Positions 37,258-47,011 of a stretch of 64,000 nucleotides of DNA are shown here, in pieces. A program made the translations under genes and the position numbers. The DNA lies in the NCBI GenBank assembly GCA_031409275.1, contig JANNXA010000024.1, positions 32,001-96,000 of the forward strand, written 5' to 3'. Under the pieces are notes generated by a model. That model was not told the origin of the DNA, did no database searches, and saw only the letters and a list, made by a program, of their open reading frames with translations. Source of the DNA: Planctomycetota bacterium (GTDB lineage Bacteria > Planctomycetota > B15-G4 > SIAN01). Position 1 is the stretch's first letter. Each line of letters begins with the position of its first letter.

Positions 37258-38874
37258 ATGTTCCGTGTCCTCATCGCCGATCCGATCGAAGCCGAGGGAG
37301 TCGCGCTGCTGCAGGCGGCGGGGCTCGAGGTCGTGCAGCGTCGCGGCCTGTCCGAGGCGGAACTGCTCCTCGAGCTGCCCGCCTTCGATGCGCTGCTGGT
37401 CCGCAGCAAGACCGTGGTGACGGCGCGCGCGCTGGAAGCGACGCGGCGACTTCGGATCGTGACGCGAGCCGGGATCGGCGTCGACAACGTCGACCTCGCC
37501 GCCGCCTCGCGTCGCGGCGTCATCGTGACCAACGTCCCCGATGCGAGCACCACGACCACCGCCGAACACGCCATCGCGCTGCTCCTGTCGCTGGCGCGCC
37601 GGATCCCCGCCGCCGATCGCCACCTGCGAGCCGGCGGCTTCGAGCGCGCGAAGTTCGTCGGCAGCGAGATCTGCGGCAAGACGCTCGGCGTGATCGGGCT
37701 CGGCCGCATCGGCAAGGTCGTCGCCGACCGCGCGCTCGGGCTGAAGATGCGCGTCGTCGCGCACGACCCGTTCCTGCCAGCGGGCGCCGCGGGCATGGCC
37801 GGCGTCACCTGCGTGCCGCTGCCGGAGCTGATGGCGCAGGTGCACGCGCTGACGGTCCACGTGCCGCTCACCGACGCGACCCGCGGAATGATCGGCGCCG
37901 CGCAGTTCGCGCAGGCGAAACGGGGTCTCCTGGTCGTGAACGCCGCGCGCGGCGGGATCGTCGATGAAGCGGCGCTGGTCGCGGCGCTTGAAAGCGGCCA
38001 GGTCGCCGGCGCCGCGCTCGACGTCTTCGTCGAGGAGCCGCCGCCGGCCGACTCGCCGCTGCGCCGTTTCGAGCAGCTGATCCTGACGCCGCACCTCGGC
38101 GCCTCGACGGCCGAAGCGCAGCTGCGCGTCGCGCTCGAAGCGGCGGCGCAGATCGTCGACTTCGCGCGCACCGGCGTCGCCCGCAGCGCCGTCAACTACG
38201 CGGCGCTGCCCGAGGATCTGCGCGAGGAGCTCGCGCCGTGCGTCGAGCTCGCGACCCGTCTGGGCCTGCTGGCGGGCGCGGCGTGCGACGGTCGGATGGC
38301 TCGCGTTGCGGTGACCTTCCGCGGCGAGCGTTTCGAGGCGGCAGGCGAGCGCGCCACTGCCCCGCTGCGCGCCGCGCTGCTGGCCGGCCTGCTGCAACGG
38401 ACGCTGGGCGAGGGAGTGAGCGCCGTGAACGCCGCGCTCTTCGCCCGCGATCGGCAGATCGAGATCCTCGAAGCGCGCGCGCCTCGCGATCGCGACTTCG
38501 TCCTGCGCATCGTGGTGGAGGTCGAATTCGCGACCCCCGCCGGTCCGCGCACGCTCTGCGTCGAAGGCACCTGCTTCGGGCGGCGACCGCGGTTGATCGC
38601 ATTCGACGGCGTACCGCTCGACGCGCCGCTCGAAGGGGTGCTGCTGGTGACGCGCCATCGCGACCGACCGGGCCAGGTCGGCCGCATCGGGACGCTGCTC
38701 GGACAGCACGGCGTGAACTTGACCAGCGTCGACGTCGGCACGCTCCCAAGCGGTGCGCAGGCGGTCGGCGTGCTGGGCATCGGCGGCGAGCTGCCGACGG
38801 CGGCGCTCTCCGAGCTGGCGCAGGTCGAAGGCATCGAGGAGACCTTCGCCGTGCGACTGCCGGCCGCGCCATGA
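37258..38874 (+). CDS. serA: D-3-phosphoglycerate dehydrogenase
   Basis: RAGIGVDNVD, GLGRIG, NAARGG, LDVF.EEP, PHLGAST.EAQ; C-terminal ACT domain (DRPG). Confidence 0.95.
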   Translation: MFRVLIADPIEAEGVALLQAAGLEVVQRRGLSEAELLLELPAFDALLVRSKTVVTARALEATRRLRIVTRAGIGVDNVDLAAASRRGVIVTNVPDASTTTTAEHAIALLLSLARRIPAADRHLRAGGFERAKFVGSEICGKTLGVIGLGRIGKVVADRALGLKMRVVAHDPFLPAGAAGMAGVTCVPLPELMAQVHALTVHVPLTDATRGMIGAAQFAQAKRGLLVVNAARGGIVDEAALVAALESGQVAGAALDVFVEEPPPADSPLRRFEQLILTPHLGASTAEAQLRVALEAAAQIVDFARTGVARSAVNYAALPEDLREELAPCVELATRLGLLAGAACDGRMARVAVTFRGERFEAAGERATAPLRAALLAGLLQRTLGEGVSAVNAALFARDRQIEILEARAPRDRDFVLRIVVEVEFATPAGPRTLCVEGTCFGRRPRLIAFDGVPLDAPLEGVLLVTRHRDRPGQVGRIGTLLGQHGVNLTSVDVGTLPSGAQAVGVLGIGGELPTAALSELAQVEGIEETFAVRLPAAP

Positions 38875-39539
38875 CGCTGGCACGCGTCCGGCCACGCTTC
38901 GCACGCGTGATCTTCGATGTCGACTCGACGCTGTGCGCGATCGAAGGGATCGACGAGCTGGCGCGCTGGCGCGGCATCGACGTCACCGCGCTCACCGAGC
39001 GCGCCATGCGCGGCGAGCTCGCGCTCGAGCAGGTCTACGCGAAGCGACTCGCGCTGGCGCGCCCCGACGCGGCGCTGCTCGCGCGACTCGGCCGCCTCTA
39101 CGTGCGACGGCTGCTGCCCGGCATGCGCGCGCTGATCGCAGGCCTGCAGCGCGCGCGCATCGAGGTCGTGCTGATCTCCGGCGGACTGCGACCGGCGCTG
39201 CTGCCGCTGCTCGATGTGCTGGAACTTCCTGGATCGCACCTCTTCGCCGTCGACGTGCGGCTCGACTCGCGCGGCCGCTATGCCGGATTCGACGAGCGCT
39301 CGCCGCTGGTGCGCGCCGACGGCAAGCGCGAAGTCGTCGCGCGCCTCGCGCCACCCCGCGGCGCACGAGTCGGGAAGGTCTTGCTGGTTGGCGACGGATC
39401 CACCGACCTCGCCGCGCGCCCGGCCGTCGACGCCTTCTGCGCCTTCACTGGCGTTGCCGTGCGGCCGAAGGTCGTCGCGAAAGCGGACCATGTCGCACAC
39501 GACGCCGCGGCCTTGCGTACACTGCTCCGCCTTGCGTGA
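38871..39539 (+). CDS. serB: HAD-IB phosphoserine phosphatase
   Basis: FDVDSTL..EGIDELA, T.RAM.GE, LISGG, GK, VGDGSTD. Confidence 0.88.
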   Translation: MTLARVRPRFARVIFDVDSTLCAIEGIDELARWRGIDVTALTERAMRGELALEQVYAKRLALARPDAALLARLGRLYVRRLLPGMRALIAGLQRARIEVVLISGGLRPALLPLLDVLELPGSHLFAVDVRLDSRGRYAGFDERSPLVRADGKREVVARLAPPRGARVGKVLLVGDGSTDLAARPAVDAFCAFTGVAVRPKVVAKADHVAHDAAALRTLLRLA

Positions 39540-39569
39540 ACGGTCGGTCGGCGAACGGTCCGAGATTGG

Positions 39570-40676
39570 ATGCGAACGATGAGCTTTCCTGGTGAATTCC
39601 CGCCTCGCATGTGGATCCCCGGGCCGACGTACGTGCGGCCCGAGATCCTCGCCGCATGCGCGCGCCCGACCGTCGGCCATCGCACGTCGATCATGAAGGA
39701 GCTCGTCCTCTCGATCGACCCGAAGCTGCGCCGCCTGTTCAACACCAGGCAGCATGCGCTCGTCATCTCCGCGTCGGGCAGCGCCGCGTGGGAAGGGGCG
39801 ATCCGCTGCGGTGTCGAGAAGCGCTGGGCCTGCATCACCAACGGCAGCTTCTCCGAAGGTTGGGCGCGCACCGGCGAGAGCTGCGGGCGCGACACCGTGA
39901 AGGTCACGTTCGAGTGGGGCGACGGGCTCGATCCCGATCGCATCCATGACGAGCTCAAGCGAGCGGGCCCGGTCGAAGCGGTCGGCTTCGTCAGCAATGA
40001 GACGTCGACCGGCGCGTTCAGCGACGTGCCGGCCGTCATCGCCGCGATCCGCCGCGCGCAGCCCGACGCGATGCTCTTCGTCGATGCGGTCAGCACGCTC
40101 GGCGGCGCCGCCTTCGAGTTCGACCGCTGGGACGTCGACCTCGCGCTCGCCTCGTCGCAGAAGTGCCTCGCGCTGCCGCCCGGCATCGCCGTCGTCGCGC
40201 TCTCCGACCGCTTCCTCGCCAAGGCGAAGACGGTGAAGGGGCGCGGCTACTACATGGACTTCGTCCACCTCGCCAGCGACTGGGACATCCACCAGACGCC
40301 GGCGACCCCGGCCGTGAACCTCTTCTACGCGCTCGACGATCAGCTCACCGCGATGGAGCGCGAGACCTACGACGCGCGCTTCGCCCGCCACCGCGCCATG
40401 GCCGAACGCGTCCATCGCTGGGCCGATGCCAAGGGTTTCCCGAGCTTCGTCGCCGAGAAGTTCCGCTCCCCCACCACCGCCAATCGCGCCGTGAACGGCT
40501 TCGACGTCGGCACCTTCATCGCGCGCATGATCGCGCGCGGCCACGAGCTCTCGAACGGCTACGGCAAGCTGAAGGGCCAGGCCTTCCGCATCGGCCACTT
40601 CGGCGACCACAGCATGGTCGAGCTCGACAACATGCTGGCGATCGCCGACGACGTGCTGAAGAGCATGGGTCGGTAG
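39570..40676 (+). CDS. Class V PLP aminotransferase (serine-pyruvate / alanine-glyoxylate type)
   Basis: IPGPT, GHR, NETSTG, VDAVS, SSQK(PLP)CLALPPG, QTPATP, FRIGH. Confidence 0.9.
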   Translation: MRTMSFPGEFPPRMWIPGPTYVRPEILAACARPTVGHRTSIMKELVLSIDPKLRRLFNTRQHALVISASGSAAWEGAIRCGVEKRWACITNGSFSEGWARTGESCGRDTVKVTFEWGDGLDPDRIHDELKRAGPVEAVGFVSNETSTGAFSDVPAVIAAIRRAQPDAMLFVDAVSTLGGAAFEFDRWDVDLALASSQKCLALPPGIAVVALSDRFLAKAKTVKGRGYYMDFVHLASDWDIHQTPATPAVNLFYALDDQLTAMERETYDARFARHRAMAERVHRWADAKGFPSFVAEKFRSPTTANRAVNGFDVGTFIARMIARGHELSNGYGKLKGQAFRIGHFGDHSMVELDNMLAIADDVLKSMGR

Positions 40677-40736: not shown

Positions 40737-41657
40737 TCACCCCGCCACCGTCCGCAGCTTCCTGAAGAGCTCGTCGAGCGCGCGCCGCAGCTCCGCGAAC
40801 TCGCCGGGGGCGAGGTCGTGCTGATCGCTGCCGCCGCGCCGTGGCTGGCGCACGACGTGCGAGTCATCACGGTCGATGGACAGCTCGAAGAGCACCTCGC
40901 CGTCTCCGCGCGCATCGAAGCCGTGCGCCTCGCAGAGGAACTCGAAGCGGCCGTCCGAGCAGTTCAGTAGCTGCATCGTGACCACGCCCGCCAGCGGCCC
41001 GCCGTTCCAGCCCGGCGCCGAATTCGCGAGCTGCAAGGTGGCGGTCACCTCGATCGACTCGCACTCACGCGTCGATTCCGAAGAGCCGCGCACGACCTTG
41101 TCGCTCCACGTGGCGCACGCGATCCGCAGCCGGCTCTCCGGTGCGCCGGGCTCCGGGCCGATCTGGCGTGCGCCCTCGATCCACGGCGCGTTCGCGAGCC
41201 CCGTCGCGTCGATCAGCGCGAGCAGCGGGGCGAAGAGCTGCGTCGGATCCTCGGCCACCTGCTCGCCGTCGAGCAGGACCTCGGCAAGGTCGCGCCAGAG
41301 GATCGCGTGGACGAGTTCGTTGGCCGCGAAGTGGTCGGCGAGCTGGCGCCGCCGCGGATCGCCCGCGCGCGCCTCATCACGCGCCGCAGCGAGCTCGCCA
41401 CGCAACCGTTCGATCTCCGTTTGCAGACGGGCGTTCTCCTCCTCGAGCAGCGAGTTCGCGTCGGCTCGACGCGCCGCGGGCGCCGAACCGGAGCGTTCGG
41501 GGCGCTCCGCCGCGACGGCCGCATCCCGCTGACGCTCCGCGCGCCATCTCGCTTCGTGAGCGGCACGCAGCTCCTGTTGCGATCGGTTCCTCATGGCGAG
41601 GCCGACGACGACGAAAAGCACCACGAGGAGTGCTGCTGCTTTGCTCCCGTTGCTCAT
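40737..41657 (-). CDS. Hypothetical protein (N-terminal TM helix plus coiled coil)
   Basis: 306-aa ORF filling the gap between the aminotransferase and tgt genes. Confidence 0.7.
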   Translation of the reverse strand: MSNGSKAAALLVVLFVVVGLAMRNRSQQELRAAHEARWRAERQRDAAVAAERPERSGSAPAARRADANSLLEEENARLQTEIERLRGELAAARDEARAGDPRRRQLADHFAANELVHAILWRDLAEVLLDGEQVAEDPTQLFAPLLALIDATGLANAPWIEGARQIGPEPGAPESRLRIACATWSDKVVRGSSESTRECESIEVTATLQLANSAPGWNGGPLAGVVTMQLLNCSDGRFEFLCEAHGFDARGDGEVLFELSIDRDDSHVVRQPRRGGSDQHDLAPGEFAELRRALDELFRKLRTVAG

Positions 41658-41710: not shown

Positions 41711-42811
41711 ATGATCTCGCTGCCCACTCCGCACGGCACGCTCGCGCTGCCCGCTTTCCTGCCCGATGCGACGCGCGGCGTGGTGCGGACCGTCGATGGC
41801 GCCGACCTGCGCGCCGTCGGCATCGAGGCGCTGTGCGTCAACACGTGGCATCTCGCCAAGGAGCCAGGCCCGCGCGCGATCGAGAAGCTCGGCGGGATCC
41901 ATCGCTTCATGGGGTTCGACGGGCCGGTCCTCTCCGACTCGGGCGGCTTCCAGGTGTTGTCGTTGCTGGCGAGCGGCGCGCTCGACGGCTCGGCCAGCAA
42001 CAAAGGGATTCGCTGGAAGGAGAAGGGCGCCGAGGGGGAGCTGCTCACGCCCGAGAAGTGCATCCGCTGGCAGGCGAAGCTCGGCGCCGACCTGCTGGTC
42101 TGCCTCGACCACTGCACGCGACCGGAAGAGGCGCCTGAAGCGCAGCGCGCGAGCGTCGACCACACGGTGCGCTGGGCGGAGGAGTGCAAGGCGACGCGCG
42201 ATCGGATCGCGCAGGAGAGCGGCGTGCGCCGGCCGCTGCTGGCCGTGATCCAGGGCGGCGACGACGTCGCGCTGCGACGCGAGTGCGCGCAGCGGCTCTT
42301 CGAGATGGACTTCGACGGCTACGCGTTCGGCGGCTGGCCGGTGCGCAGCGACGGGACGCTGGTGGCGAGCGTCGCGCAAGTGGCCGCGATGGCGCCGCAC
42401 GATCGGCCGCTGTGGGGGCTGGGCATCGGCAAGCCGGAGAACCTCGTCGCCGCGGCGGCGCTCGGCTACTCGCTCTTCGACTGCGTGCTGCCGACCCGTG
42501 ACGCGCGCCAAGGCCGGATCTGCATCCGACTCGGCGGGCCGGCGCGCGCCGACAACTCGCCGCGCTGGTGGGACTACCTCTACCTCGCCGACACCAAGCA
42601 CGCGGTCGACGATGCGCCGCTCGAAGAGGGTTGTCCGTGCCCGACCTGCGCGCGCTGCTCGCGCGGCTACCTCCACCACCTCGCGACCGTGAACGAGTCG
42701 CTGGTGCTGCGGCTCGCGACGCTGCACAACCTCTCCTTCTACGCACGGCTGATGCGCGAGCTGCAAGCGGCGCGCGTGGAGCCGACCGCGCGCGAGATCG
42801 CGACGCCGTGA
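41711..42811 (+). CDS. tgt: tRNA-guanine transglycosylase family protein (atypical pocket)
   Basis: DSGGFQ, LDHC, IQGG, FDCVLPTR.AR.G, Zn site CPCPTC...HN. Confidence 0.88.
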   Translation: MISLPTPHGTLALPAFLPDATRGVVRTVDGADLRAVGIEALCVNTWHLAKEPGPRAIEKLGGIHRFMGFDGPVLSDSGGFQVLSLLASGALDGSASNKGIRWKEKGAEGELLTPEKCIRWQAKLGADLLVCLDHCTRPEEAPEAQRASVDHTVRWAEECKATRDRIAQESGVRRPLLAVIQGGDDVALRRECAQRLFEMDFDGYAFGGWPVRSDGTLVASVAQVAAMAPHDRPLWGLGIGKPENLVAAAALGYSLFDCVLPTRDARQGRICIRLGGPARADNSPRWWDYLYLADTKHAVDDAPLEEGCPCPTCARCSRGYLHHLATVNESLVLRLATLHNLSFYARLMRELQAARVEPTAREIATP

Positions 42812-43692
42812 CGTCGATGCCAGCGCCACCGTCGCTGGTCGCGGCGCTGCGCCAGTCGCGCAAATACAAGGACGTCGCGGAGGCGGTGCTCCAGCGCGTC
42901 GCGGCGGAAGCGTGGGCGATCGAGGGGCGCGAGGCGGACGCGGTGAAGCGCGCCAAACGGGCGCTCCACCAGCTCCACTCCGCGTTCGTGCAGGAGCGCG
43001 AACTCGACGACGCCGAGGCCGCCGTCGCGGCGCTCGAACACGAACGCGCAGCGGCGCGCGCCGCCGGCAGCGACCTCCCTGCGGAGCGACTCGAGGCGAC
43101 CTGCCGCACGGTGCTGGCCTGCCACGCGTCGACGCGCGAGCGGCTGACGCAGCTCGCCGCGCTCGGCCGCGAGCTCACGGCACGGATCGGCCCGCCGCAA
43201 AGCCTCCTCGATCTCGGCTGCGGTTTGCATCCCTTCGCGCTGCCGTGGATGGCGCTGCCGCGCGAGATGCCCTACCACGCCCGCGAAGCGGACGCGCGGA
43301 TGGCAGGACTCGTCGGCCGCTTCTTCGCGAGCGTCGGCCAGGCGGGCAGCGCGGCGCCGCTCGATGTCGTGGCCGCCGCCGTCGGAGAGAGCGAGCTGCC
43401 GCGTGCCGACGTGGCGTGGCTCTTCAAGCTGCTGCCGACGCTCGAACGGCAACGAGCCGGAACCTCCGCTCGACTGCTGACGCGGCTCGAACGGCTCGAC
43501 GTGCGCGCGGTCGTCGTCTCGTTCCCGACGCGATCGCTCGGCGCGCGCGCGAAGGGGATGGACGAAGCGTACGGCCGCTTCGCCGACGAACTCTTCGCCG
43601 GCACCGCGTGGCGCACGACCCGCTTTGAACTCGGCGACGAGCTCTTCGTCGTCGGCCAACGGGCGCGCAGCGAAGAGAAGACCGCAGACTGA
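42808..43692 (+). CDS. ArmA/Rmt/Sgm (FmrO)-like 16S rRNA m7G1405 methyltransferase homolog
   Basis: KY, K.ALHQ..SAF, HASTRERL, LDLGCGLHP, FKLLPTLERQ, VSFPTRSLG.R.KGM...Y, EL; GTGA overlap with tgt. Confidence 0.85.
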   Translation: MTSMPAPPSLVAALRQSRKYKDVAEAVLQRVAAEAWAIEGREADAVKRAKRALHQLHSAFVQERELDDAEAAVAALEHERAAARAAGSDLPAERLEATCRTVLACHASTRERLTQLAALGRELTARIGPPQSLLDLGCGLHPFALPWMALPREMPYHAREADARMAGLVGRFFASVGQAGSAAPLDVVAAAVGESELPRADVAWLFKLLPTLERQRAGTSARLLTRLERLDVRAVVVSFPTRSLGARAKGMDEAYGRFADELFAGTAWRTTRFELGDELFVVGQRARSEEKTAD

Positions 43693-43720: not shown

Positions 43721-46700
43721 TCACTCGAAGCGTGCGAGCTCGAGCGTCGTGGTGGCGCCGGCAGGGAGAGCGAGCTCACCCGTGGCGATGCGCTTCGCAG
43801 CGGGAAAGCCGCTCGCCGCGGTCCATGTCGCGCGCCAGCGCAGCCGCCCCGCCGGTCGCGTCGACTCGGCGACGACGCTGCCCATGCGATCGGTCGCCAC
43901 CTCCGTCTCGCGCGCGAGCGGTTCGTCGCCGTTCGCCAGTTCGATCAGAAGCCGGCCCGGCGCGAGCGCCTCGCCGATCCGCCACTCGATCCGCGCCGAC
44001 GGCTGCAGTTCGAGCGGCAGTTCGCGCCGCTCGCCCGATTGCAGGACCACCGTCGCCGAAGCGTGCTCGCCGTCCCCTTCGACGTAGAGGCAGATCGGCA
44101 AGCCGACCGGCAATCGCCCCAACAGGAACCGTCCCTCGTCATCGATGTGCGCGCAACCGTCGGTGACGTCGCTCTGCGGACGTCCGCTCGCATCGATCTG
44201 GTGACCACCGTCCTGGGGGTTGTTCGTGTCGGGCCGGACCCACAGGAACCAATGCACCTCGCCACGGACCGGCTGCCCGCCGCGCATCAGCTGGCCGGCG
44301 ATCTGCGCCGGCTCCCCCACCGTCCAGTCGAGCGCCAGCTGCTGATCGGGCTGCTCGATTCGGAAGCGCAGGACCGCGCGTCGGCCGTCGCTGAAGTCGC
44401 CGCGCAGCTCCCAATCGCCAGGAAAGAGCGCGTCAACGACGATCTTCCCGCTCGAGAGCTGCGCACCCGGCCGCGAGTGGACGTAGTTGGAGCGCGGCCA
44501 GGCGAACGCGCGCACCGGCGTCAGCGCCGCGCCGCTCGCGCCGTCACGCACCGTGATGACGGCGCGCGCCGTGGTCGCCGGAAGGCGCTGCAGCACCACC
44601 ACGACGTCGTCGCCGGCGCGCACTCGCTGCGGGAAGGGGGCGATGCAGCCGTCGACCGGTTCTGCGAAGAGCGTGAAGCGCAGGTCGCTCACCCCTTCGA
44701 CGACGAAGCGCCCCTGCGCGTCGGTCGGCTGCGTCGCGCGCAGCTGGACGTAGTTCTGTTGCTGCGGATCGAGCGCCTCGACGTGGACGACCACCCCCGC
44801 CTGCGGCGCCCCGCCGTCGTCGATGACTCGCCCGCGCACCTGCCCCGCGCGCATCAACGTGAAGTCGAGCGGCAGCTCCTCGCGCACGCGCGCCACACCA
44901 TCGGCGCCGACGACTCCCGATGAGTCCGCGTCGATCGTCGTGATCCGCCCGCGCACCCAGTCGCCGGTCGCACCGAAGTCGCCGGGCGCGAAACCGTCGG
45001 CCGTCGCCTTGCCGTCGAGGTCGCCGATCGGCCCCTCGCGATCGCTCGTCGCATAGTGCCCTTCGGCGTCGCTGGTCGTCGGCTCGAATCCCGCGATCGC
45101 CACCGTCGCGCCGGCGATCCCGCCGCCGCGCTCGTCGACCACGCGCCCGACCACGCGATGGACGGTCGGCGGCCGCAGCTCGACGATCACCTCGTCCTCG
45201 CGGCCGCGTGCGACGCCAAGCGACCGCACGACCGGCCGCCACCCCTCCGCCATGACGTACAGCCGATAGCCTCTCGAACTGCTGGAGAGGTTCTCGAGCA
45301 GCGGCTCGTCGCGCCCTTCGATCAGCGAGTCGAAGACGACCGAGCCCGCCTCGTCGGTCACGCCGCGGAAGAGCGCCTTCCACGGCTCGCGCGCGATGGA
45401 GGGGAGTGGCGGCTCGTCGTTCCCGAAGTGGCGCTGCCCGAAGGGCGGGAAGGTCGGGTAGGCAACCACTTCGGCGTCGGAAACCGGTTCGCCAGCAGGC
45501 GTCACGACGCGCACACGCAACCGCGCCGGCGGCTCGAGCGCGACCTCGACGTCGACCTGCTCTGCCTCGCCGGCAACCCGGAAGAGGGCGTAACCGATGC
45601 GACCGGCGCCCAGCGCGAAGAGCACGGCGGCCGAGTGTTCCGTCGTCACCGGTTCGCTCAGCTCGAACCGGCCATCGCCATCGCTGGTGGCGACCGGGCG
45701 AGCGCTGTCGGGACCGAAACGATCCGAGCCGACGTAGCTGTTCGCGCGCAGATGGAGCGTCGCTCCCGCCACCGGCGTGCGCTCCGGCAACTGCACGACG
45801 CGACCCACGACACGCGCCCCGACCGACAGCTCGATGCGGCCGAGATCGACGATCGGCACGTTGTCACGCTGCGTGGAACGGCGTCCGTCGAGTTCCAGGT
45901 GGACCCGCTGCGGCGCATCGACCGAGCCGTCGAACCAGTCGCGCGCCACGCGTTCGAGCGTCGCCGCAACGCGGCCATCCGCTCCGCTCACGAGCTCCGT
46001 CACGCGCTGCTCGAGCGTCGCGCCCTCCGCCGCGGAACCGGCGAACCACCGGAGCTCCACCGTCGCATCGCGAAGCGGCGCCCCGCCGCGTGCATCGACC
46101 ACGACCCCGACCACGGCGATCCGCTCGAAGAGCGCAGCCGCGCCGCGACCCTCCGCACTCGCTTCGCGCCGCTGCGCCTGCGGGGCATCGGCCGGCGCCG
46201 GCACCGGTGATGCCGGCATGCCATCGCTAGCGCCGCTCGAAGAGGCGTCGGCTGGGAGCGCGGCGTTCGCCACCGAATCGGCGTTCGGCGACGGCGCCCG
46301 CCGCGGCTCGACGACGAAGTGCCAGGTCGCGAGCACTGCGACCAGCACTCCCGCCGCCACTGCGCTCTTGGTTGCCGTCCCCATCGCCGTCGCTCCCATC
46401 GCCAACGCAAGCCCGCCCCATTGGTCGCGCGTGCCGTAGCGTGAATCGAGGTCGCCGCGCAACCGCGCGAGCCCGCGCTTCAGCCGCGTGCGCACCGTCT
46501 CGACCGGGAGCCCGAGCTGCACCGCGATGGTCCGCGGCGGCTGCCCGTCGAAGTAACGCAGGAGCACGACGCGGCGGTGCGGCTCATCGAGCCGGAGCAG
46601 CGCCTCGGCCAGCGCACGCTGCAGCTCGACCTGTGCCACCAGGTGGTCGGCGGCCGGCTGCGCCTCGCGGCGGGCGACGCTGCGCTCGCGAGCGACACGG

Positions 46701-46933
46701 GCGGCGCGCCGCACGCGACGCCGCGCGGCGAGGTTCTGCGCGATGCGCCGCAACCAGCCACCGGCGCGCGTCGCATCGCCGGGTGGATGGAGCCACGCGG
46801 CGAGCTGCGTCTCCTGAACCAGGTCCTCGGCGTCGCCGTCGTCCGCAAGCGAGCGCGCCAACGCCAGCAACTCGCGGCGGTCGCCGAGCAGCTGATCGAC
46901 GTCGAGAGGTGCATCGGAATCGGGAGGGGTCAT
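43721..46933 (-). CDS. ECF sigma-70 factor fused via a TM helix to carboxypeptidase-regulatory-like repeats
   Basis: AEDLVQET, WLRRIAQN, VLLRYFDG..IA..LG.PVETVRTRLKRG, TM helix, then repeated GRVVD / TD..GRF. Confidence 0.88.
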   Translation of the reverse strand: MTPPDSDAPLDVDQLLGDRRELLALARSLADDGDAEDLVQETQLAAWLHPPGDATRAGGWLRRIAQNLAARRRVRRAARVARERSVARREAQPAADHLVAQVELQRALAEALLRLDEPHRRVVLLRYFDGQPPRTIAVQLGLPVETVRTRLKRGLARLRGDLDSRYGTRDQWGGLALAMGATAMGTATKSAVAAGVLVAVLATWHFVVEPRRAPSPNADSVANAALPADASSSGASDGMPASPVPAPADAPQAQRREASAEGRGAAALFERIAVVGVVVDARGGAPLRDATVELRWFAGSAAEGATLEQRVTELVSGADGRVAATLERVARDWFDGSVDAPQRVHLELDGRRSTQRDNVPIVDLGRIELSVGARVVGRVVQLPERTPVAGATLHLRANSYVGSDRFGPDSARPVATSDGDGRFELSEPVTTEHSAAVLFALGAGRIGYALFRVAGEAEQVDVEVALEPPARLRVRVVTPAGEPVSDAEVVAYPTFPPFGQRHFGNDEPPLPSIAREPWKALFRGVTDEAGSVVFDSLIEGRDEPLLENLSSSSRGYRLYVMAEGWRPVVRSLGVARGREDEVIVELRPPTVHRVVGRVVDERGGGIAGATVAIAGFEPTTSDAEGHYATSDREGPIGDLDGKATADGFAPGDFGATGDWVRGRITTIDADSSGVVGADGVARVREELPLDFTLMRAGQVRGRVIDDGGAPQAGVVVHVEALDPQQQNYVQLRATQPTDAQGRFVVEGVSDLRFTLFAEPVDGCIAPFPQRVRAGDDVVVVLQRLPATTARAVITVRDGASGAALTPVRAFAWPRSNYVHSRPGAQLSSGKIVVDALFPGDWELRGDFSDGRRAVLRFRIEQPDQQLALDWTVGEPAQIAGQLMRGGQPVRGEVHWFLWVRPDTNNPQDGGHQIDASGRPQSDVTDGCAHIDDEGRFLLGRLPVGLPICLYVEGDGEHASATVVLQSGERRELPLELQPSARIEWRIGEALAPGRLLIELANGDEPLARETEVATDRMGSVVAESTRPAGRLRWRATWTAASGFPAAKRIATGELALPAGATTTLELARFE

Positions 46934-47011
46934 CGCCACCACGCTACGGCCGGGATCTGGGGTCGATCCGTCGACGCCCAACCACTCCACGCCGCCGGTG
47001 GCGAATCGGGT

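Follow-up and report, generated by a model that had tools for sequence, protein, structure and literature searches.

A Tgt paralogue coupled to a predicted 16S rRNA G1405 methylase gene in Planctomycetota and other bacterial phyla

The locus described here is a tgt-like gene followed by an rmt-like methylase gene in a 64,000-nucleotide stretch of a Planctomycetota genome (the window; contig JANNXA010000024.1 of GCA_031409275.1, positions 32,001 to 96,000, or G000:C24:32001-96000 in our numbering), and its closest described relatives are the bacterial Tgt enzymes and the methylases of 16S rRNA G1405. In Z. mobilis Tgt, the Ala232 amide reaches guanine N7 through a water molecule, and the Leu231/Ala232 peptide flips together with Glu235 to present its carbonyl to preQ1, while glycine at position 233 is the mark of a queuine-inserting Tgt (excerpt of PMC3660597). 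Val45 forms part of the ribose-34/phosphate-35 floor (excerpt of PMC5395182). Among the methylases, RmtC has to distort helix 44 and flip the buried, C1496-paired G1405 (excerpt of PMC10288597). Archaeal TgtA, acting on tRNA G15, and DpdA, acting on DNA, are precedents for a Tgt paralogue with a changed nucleic-acid target, and the shift of DpdA was first predicted from gene clustering (PMC5699537).

Adjacency of tgt and rmtG is already in print, in excerpts of PMC9311965 (section 3.8) and PMC3904158 that treat tgt like any other gene and say nothing of a subfamily, its distribution or a mechanism. The literature searched, with subscription journals outside its coverage, held nothing on the pair or the subfamily beyond this adjacency; PMC11570991 contained no match for paralog, CPR (candidate phyla radiation) or Chloroflex, and an excerpt of a 2026 review treats N7-methylguanosine (m7G) at position 1405 as an actinomycete and plasmid trait (PMC13602947). 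Here we describe TGT-X, the Tgt type of the window, which represents a widespread Tgt subfamily that has not been described previously, is functionally tied to G1405-type methylases and is named as ordinary Tgt by annotation pipelines.

The Tgt paralogue and its coupled methylase

TGT-X of the window carries PDAT, GGWP and GLGIG motifs, and its open reading frame (ORF) is intact (Table 1). In profile searches the product scored 299 bits with PF01702 and 279 bits with TIGR00449, placing it in the TGT superfamily, and 276.5 bits with the canonical equivalog TIGR00430, below the cut-off of 306.75; some relatives only just pass (306.5-319), and canonical copies score above 400. It is not an archaeal TgtA, scoring 91.6 bits with TIGR00432 against a cut-off of 350 and having no C-terminal PUA extension in its 366 residues. 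The AlphaFold2 model, with a mean predicted local distance difference test score (pLDDT) of 91.6 and a predicted template modelling score (pTM) of 0.90, matches Z. mobilis Tgt (1efz) with a TM score of 0.87. With the Z. mobilis and E. coli enzymes (TIGR00430; 1efz, 1ozm) it shares the TIM barrel, catalysis by Asp102 and Asp280, residues Asp156, Gln203, Gly229-230 and Arg286/Arg289, the Zn site and Tyr330/His333.

In the alignment to Z. mobilis Tgt, the catalytic residues D76 and D257 pair with D102 and D280, and the guanine-face residues D133 and Q181 pair with D156 and Q203. All four are intact, and the Zn ligands C308, C310, C313 and H339 are present, as the first-pass annotation of the window had claimed for the catalytic motifs and the Zn site. 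Residues C135 (Cys158), V211 (Val233), R263/R266 (Arg286/Arg289) and the dimer pair Y320/H323 (Y330/H333) are likewise kept. The three motif changes from which that annotation had called the enzyme atypical hold up in the same alignment: D19 stands for V45 in PDAT, W209-P210 for the canonical Leu231-Ala/Ser232 switch in GGWPV, and L237 for M260 in GLGIG. R212/S213 occupy the positions of G234/E235, leaving a serine where the switch partner Glu235 would be. Expressed as substitutions, TGT-X differs from canonical Tgt by V45D, L231W, A232P, loss of G234-E235, Y258W/H, M260L and S/N287D, and further by its hairpin and a 14-residue insertion.

These motif changes are traits of the subfamily and are not peculiar to the window gene. 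D45 and P232 each occur in 120/120 of the nearest TGT-X homologues and W231 in 98% of them, whereas canonical Tgts (n=173) have V/I45 in 98%, E235 in 96% and M260 in 91%. A hairpin turn of the Asp-Gly type is found in 149/173 canonical Tgts, compared with 13/52 and 22/120 TGT-X proteins, and the segment following Arg289 has a median length of 36 residues in TGT-X against 22 in canonical Tgts. Derived TGT-X proteins have lost the Asp-Gly turn, gained about 14 residues after Arg289 and changed Tyr258, Met260 and Asp267, at sites that presumably all contact RNA. Across the family, the catalytic and guanine-face residues are invariant, and the changes gather at the 7-position and RNA-contact sites. 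Since Pro232 offers no amide hydrogen and Glu235 is gone, we infer that the pocket is locked in the form that fits a 7-substituted base, with preQ1 entering or m7G leaving. Where queuine-type Tgts of eukaryotes and Chlamydia have Gly233, TGT-X has V211 and its relatives Leu, Val or Ile, which argues against queuine. Four further PDAT-type Tgts (L010, L015, L091 and L130) carry GARP for GGWP and have no Zn ligands; such a protein is the sole Tgt in genome G302.

The downstream gene encodes a methyltransferase of the Rmt/FmrO family, in keeping with its initial reading as ArmA/Rmt-like. It scored 148 bits with PF07091 (cut-off 27) and 185 bits with the equivalog NF000466, below the cut-off of 250, and its best solved relative is Sgm (E-value 4.5e-39). 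A two-domain sequence and S-adenosylmethionine motifs are common to this protein and to Sgm, RmtB, RmtC, RmtF and ArmA (PF07091; 3lcu, 3frh, 8ghu, 6pi9, 3fzg). Eleven RmtC residues linked to docking on 30S, distortion of the helix or placement of G1405 have identical or conservative counterparts: K19, Y20, K47, K50, H54 and F60 correspond to RmtC K20, Y21, K47, R50, H54 and Y60, and K207, R214, R242, R247 and M251 to RmtC K204, R211, K236, R241 and M245. Unlike those enzymes, the window methylase falls below the NF000466 cut-off, has no aligned counterpart of RmtC R39, is chromosomal and is coupled to a Tgt paralogue; the region of RmtC R68/K72 gave no confident alignment. The locus has a host-like GC content at third codon positions (GC3) of 0.87, and the flanking ORFs read include neither mobile nor biosynthetic genes. 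Because the RmtC residues are kept and clinical G1405 methylases have the same Tgt partner, N7-methylation of G1405 is likely, and it would confer aminoglycoside resistance. We expect with good confidence that the enzyme docks onto 30S, flips out G1405 and methylates its N7, so that its target is probably G1405 and nothing more exotic.

The two intact ORFs share the bases GTGA at 42808-42811, exactly the overlap reported at first. A start for the methylase within this overlap is likely, though unproven, because the relatives P0123 (MTS..), P0129 (VT..) and P0134 (MTR..) begin at that position; an ATG nine bases on, at 42817, is also possible, and the 291-aa database protein starts there. A search for a sigma-70 promoter found none. 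One public contig, which may be the source itself, covers the stretch without any difference, and another sample from the same study spans the overlap (42306-43462), again without a difference. No RNA sample was listed as containing the stretch.

Co-occurrence and inheritance of the pair

Genome surveys bore out the proposal that the two genes form a module. Among 151 Chloroflexota genomes sampled, 30 carry TGT-X and 32 carry an FmrO-family gene (FmrO). All 30 TGT-X genomes have FmrO, within about 1.3 kb of TGT-X in 28 cases, and each of the remaining two FmrO genes has a piece of TGT-X immediately upstream, truncated at a contig end in one case and broken in the other. In a sample from the phylum of a Firmicutes record (G310), FmrO is present in 5/251 genomes, each time with TGT-X directly upstream and rsmI adjoining. 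The window's own phylum (n=301 genomes) has 10 genomes with FmrO over the cut-off and 10 with TGT-X (one cut by a contig end). Eight are shared, six with the genes adjacent and two (G162 and G289) with the genes 4-6 kb apart; G210, G057, G241 and G244 have one gene alone. The Actinomycetota sample, which held no producer-type genes, yielded a single FmrO over the cut-off in 261 genomes, next to the N-terminal part of a Tgt-like frame, which scored 57 bits. Producer-type methylase genes are not known to have a Tgt partner.

Scans of the collection directed at Tgt, with patterns common to canonical Tgt, gave at least 160 loci, of which 30 among the matches listed were of the PDAT/GGWP type. Among these matches, FmrO lies directly downstream in 14/30 PDAT/GGWP loci vs 0/130 canonical loci; of the 16 PDAT/GGWP loci without FmrO, three are at a contig edge, one has FmrO elsewhere and the rest group with Patescibacteria. 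In an alphaproteobacterial record, TGT-X neighbours genes for RsmF-like and RsmI proteins; its FmrO is split and lies on a different contig (L014:5522-9059, G303:C7:136528-137216).

Both orders of the two genes occur, and so do two fusions that are only 36% identical to each other: P0381, of 667 aa, for which there are also two near-identical partial records, and P0322, of 628 aa. The model of P0322 comprises two confident domains (mean pLDDT 92.6) joined by a low-confidence linker at 362-367, its pTM of 0.65 being uninformative on docking. A separate screen for longer FmrO proteins returned none among 7991 candidates, a weak blank that these fusions contradict. A RecN-FmrO frame of 907 aa (P0257) probably arose by read-through or frameshift.

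Tree distances over 26 genomes correlate at r=0.72 between FmrO and TGT-X and at 0.42 between FmrO and canonical Tgt, with a partial r of 0.66 for FmrO and TGT-X (permutation p=0.0005, kin not being independent). FmrO distances track TGT-X more closely than the canonical Tgt of the same genomes, and the two genes are therefore likely to move as a unit. TGT-X is typically an extra copy: a canonical tgt accompanies it in 34/38 genomes, is partial in three and is absent from one, and is present in 5/5 others. The idea that the pairing might not be conserved elsewhere thus failed, and the view that TGT-X and the methylase are a conserved, co-inherited module, recurring across phyla, is strongly supported.

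The pair also extends to clinical resistance regions. An intact PDAT/GGWP-type Tgt gene precedes clinical rmtB2, rmtD2 and rmtG, and a broken copy precedes rmtE2; on the rmtG plasmid the order is rsmH-tgt-rmtG-truncated rsmI-like. These regions (rsmH-tgt-rmtG, tgt-rmtD2, tgt-(phosphoesterase)-rmtB2 and delta-tgt-rmtE2) resemble the window in Tgt type (PDAT, with GGWP or GGFP), gene order and tree branch, but the clinical Tgt copies keep Met260 and have Glu287.

Neighbouring genes, with names checked against NCBIfam, separate TGT-X further from canonical Tgt. Within 1.3 kb, canonical non-CPR tgt loci have queA in 44/100 cases and neither rsmI nor FmrO in any, whereas derived TGT-X loci (n=53) have queA in none, rsmI in 13, rsmH in two and an RsmF-like gene in one. 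FmrO is present in 31/53 of them, an overestimate, as FmrO was itself the route by which many of the loci were retrieved. Five Chloroflexota loci (L006, L011, L012, L013 and L016) also have RsmF-like, RsmE and queuosine-precursor transporter genes within 5 kb. RsmI and RsmH act on C1402 and RsmF on C1407 (excerpt of PMC3923132), and RsmE acts on U1498 by its NCBIfam family assignment; the recurring neighbours point to 16S helix 44. TGT-X is unlike TgtA and DpdA in having rRNA methylases and not DNA-modification genes as neighbours. One Chloroflexota locus (L012:7177-14428) holds rsmI, tgtX, fmrO, fmrO2, rsmF-like, rsmE, the queuosine-precursor transporter and a second rsmI, so that rsmI occurs twice within 7 kb. 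A second, tandem FmrO copy occurs in L006, L011, L012, L013, L016, L098, L314 and L317 (for example L012:9825-10676); it has KEAHR for K-x-L-P-x-L-E and no GGR-x-KGM loop, and forms a separate subfamily in Anaerolineae-type genomes.

Possible targets of TGT-X

The host genome has three Tgt genes, two of them canonical (PVGT/GGVSVGE/LMGVG and PVAT/GGIAVGE/LMGVG) and the third TGT-X, and one FmrO. The earlier suggestion to look for a second canonical tgt therefore found two, and the absence of que genes from the window was confirmed, with host queC, queF and queA each lying on other contigs. With these genes at hand, the host can do without TGT-X for ordinary queuosine synthesis and probably has preQ1 available. 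The pocket, the remodelled surfaces and the neighbours make it plausible that the base or the RNA target is non-canonical. In the reading we tentatively prefer, the methylase would make m7G1405 in 16S rRNA, and TGT-X would act on that decoding-site rRNA rather than on tRNA. An exchange of the base at or next to G1405 is, in the same measure, quite conceivable. The most specific version, in which a pocket fixed for a 7-substituted base lets TGT-X replace m7G1405 by preQ1, or by a related 7-deazaguanine, made by the host Que enzymes, is unlikely as a whole.

Several observations weigh against action on rRNA. Bacterial Tgt requires a U-G-U within a loop of seven bases (excerpt of PMC4425180), and G1405 lies in C-G-U inside a helix, buried and paired with C1496 (excerpt of PMC10288597). 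Early work saw no activity of E. coli Tgt on eukaryotic rRNA (excerpt of PMC4425180), and no deazaguanine in rRNA is reported in the literature searched. TGT-X keeps the Arg286/Arg289 equivalents and the dimer residues Y330/H333, as in tRNA enzymes, and RsmI had no match in the host genome, which is 92.9% complete. Clinical Rmts function in the absence of TGT-X: it is broken beside rmtE2, and intact copies stand in only 12 plasmid records; read-through fusions, moreover, can be accidental, as P0257 illustrates.

The Patescibacteria add further such points. In a sample of 151 genomes, Tgt is nearly always single copy and FmrO occurs in three, in two of them away from any TGT-X. Derived TGT-X is the sole Tgt in 14 of the 151, with FmrO absent from 13/14, rsmI adjoining in six and an intact QueA in three. 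Basal PDAT enzymes occur in ten Patescibacteria, nine of which have QueA, four in queA-tgt operons, and QueA accompanies 4/4 basal enzymes with GGWP; the Trp-Pro pocket looks compatible with ordinary preQ1-tRNA synthesis. Hence a new target does not follow from PDAT and GGWP alone, and in some cases the enzyme has no need of the methylase. QueA is rarer with derived sole TGT-X (3/14) than among other Tgt-bearing Patescibacteria (63/116; Fisher p=0.024), a difference of little weight as kin are not independent. Of the first-pass interpretation, the module thus stands, and the non-canonical target is left plausible and weakened by these sole-copy enzymes. The final tree (72 rows, built without the motif and insertion columns and lacking L282 and L285; bootstrap not settled at 0.975) has one PDAT clade (100/99), one derived clade (98/95) and a non-Patescibacteria group (94/54), with Patescibacteria branches at the base of the PDAT clade and the FmrO-linked group inside it. 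As the inner branch is weak and no one-clade test was made, we do not claim a Patescibacteria origin of TGT-X.

The same sole-copy enzymes with QueA, together with the kept catalytic and dimer residues, favour a TGT-X that is a second tRNA G34 preQ1 transglycosylase, whose extra queuosine would offset the decoding cost of m7G1405 or add aminoglycoside tolerance. ArmA costs fitness, blocks RsmI and alters accuracy (excerpt of PMC3923132), and loss of tgt lowers fitness under aminoglycosides below the minimum inhibitory concentration (excerpts of PMC13602947 and PMC11703503). We nevertheless consider this role somewhat unlikely: hosts already have a canonical tgt, a dosage effect needs neither strict one-to-one coupling nor two fusions, derived TGT-X lies beside queA in 0/53 loci, and its hairpin, insertion and D267, Y258 and M260 positions are remodelled. 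It is decidedly improbable that TGT-X is an eraser or repair enzyme that returns N7-methylguanine to guanine at G1405 or at mis-methylated sites and so limits the cost of the methylase. A pocket without an N7 hydrogen-bond donor would suit an N7-methyl leaving base, and m7G1405 is costly (excerpt of PMC3923132), but the same pocket appears ill-suited to re-taking plain guanine, a coupled or fused writer and eraser would run a futile cycle, and the FmrO-less Patescibacteria copies would go unexplained.

Genomes with one gene alone (G210, G057, G241 and G244) and the two Patescibacteria with FmrO away from TGT-X would be expected if the two genes were neighbours by chance, or if tgt passively hitch-hiked along with a resistance gene. 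The surveys contradict chance, and with 30/30 co-occurrence, both gene orders, the 4-6 kb gaps in G162 and G289, the fusions and a shared tree at about 45-50% identity we regard either account as extremely improbable. The recurring neighbours, all of which act on 16S positions 1402-1407 and 1498, also make it improbable that TGT-X works on another RNA or position (some other tRNA site or rRNA helix, or an mRNA) or resists free 7-methylguanine, with a regulatory link to Rmt; m7G sources other than Rmt, moreover, exist in most cells. Such a role would agree with the earlier target shift of DpdA in the Tgt family (PMC5699537), with virF mRNA as a Tgt substrate in vitro (excerpt of PMC4425180) and with inhibition of Tgt by 7-methylguanine (excerpt of PMC9299380).

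If the exchange of m7G1405 at the decoding site were true, which is doubtful, m7G1405, known as a mark of aminoglycoside resistance, would be only an intermediate in many environmental bacteria and its replacement the first base-exchange modification of rRNA, and clinical rmtB2, rmtD, rmtE and rmtG would be the captured first half of a housekeeping pathway. Any action of TGT-X on rRNA would extend deazaguanine chemistry from tRNA and DNA to the decoding site. In either case, the module indicates what sort of chromosomal operon was the source of several captured clinical 16S methylase genes. It also suggests that the predicted G1405 methylation is a housekeeping trait in about one-fifth of the sampled Chloroflexota (32/151).

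Features of the window and further observations

Table 1. Features of the TGT-X and methylase pair in window coordinates
Feature	Position	Strand	Basis
TGT-X, Tgt paralogue, 366 aa	41711..42811	+	ORF, profile matches, alignment to Z. mobilis Tgt, AlphaFold2
PDAT stretch, Asp in place of Val45	41762..41773	+	alignment; pocket role from excerpt of PMC5395182
Beta-hairpin without the Asp-Gly turn of canonical Tgts	42011..42037	+	alignment
GGWPVRS, Trp-Pro for the Leu231-Ala232 switch peptide, Gly234-Glu235 gone	42329..42349	+	alignment; excerpt of PMC3660597
GLGIG, Leu for Met260; Trp for Tyr258 just 5'	42416..42430	+	alignment
Insertion of about 14 residues 3' of the Arg286/Arg289 equivalents, typical of derived TGT-X	42527..42583	+	alignment
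GTGA start/stop overlap, likely translational coupling	42808..42811	+	sequence; homologue starts
Rmt/FmrO-family methyltransferase, 294 aa, predicted 16S rRNA G1405 N7-methylase	42808..43692	+	ORF, profiles, Sgm match

In host 16S rRNA, helix 44 carries no signature linked to the module, CCCGUCA being kept in 18/18 full-match loci read. Seven Patescibacteria with derived TGT-X (G304, G305, G311, G340, G367, G393 and G456) have U for C at 16S position 1400, an observation made with no control group, and many of the derived-TGT-X Patescibacteria also have Phe at Tgt position 158. In G545, about 14 sites, most of them close to the end of a contig, share a 16-base stretch that is similar to the 16S motif and is likely a repeat element.

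The canonical host tgt genes lie at G000:C51:329846-330910 and G000:C22:38684-39718, and several genomes of the same order also have two; the host genome further contains two RsmH-like matches. The nearest named homologues of the pair are Planctomycetes records. Upstream of the pair, the plus strand carries SerA-like, HAD phosphatase and class V aminotransferase genes (37264-40676). In G231, of the same genus, the aminotransferase gene runs directly into tgtX, while in the window a 306-aa ORF on the minus strand (40737-41657), with no Pfam match, lies between them. Convergent with the pair, the minus strand at 43721-46990 encodes a 1089-aa extracytoplasmic function sigma factor fused to carboxypeptidase-regulatory-like repeats.

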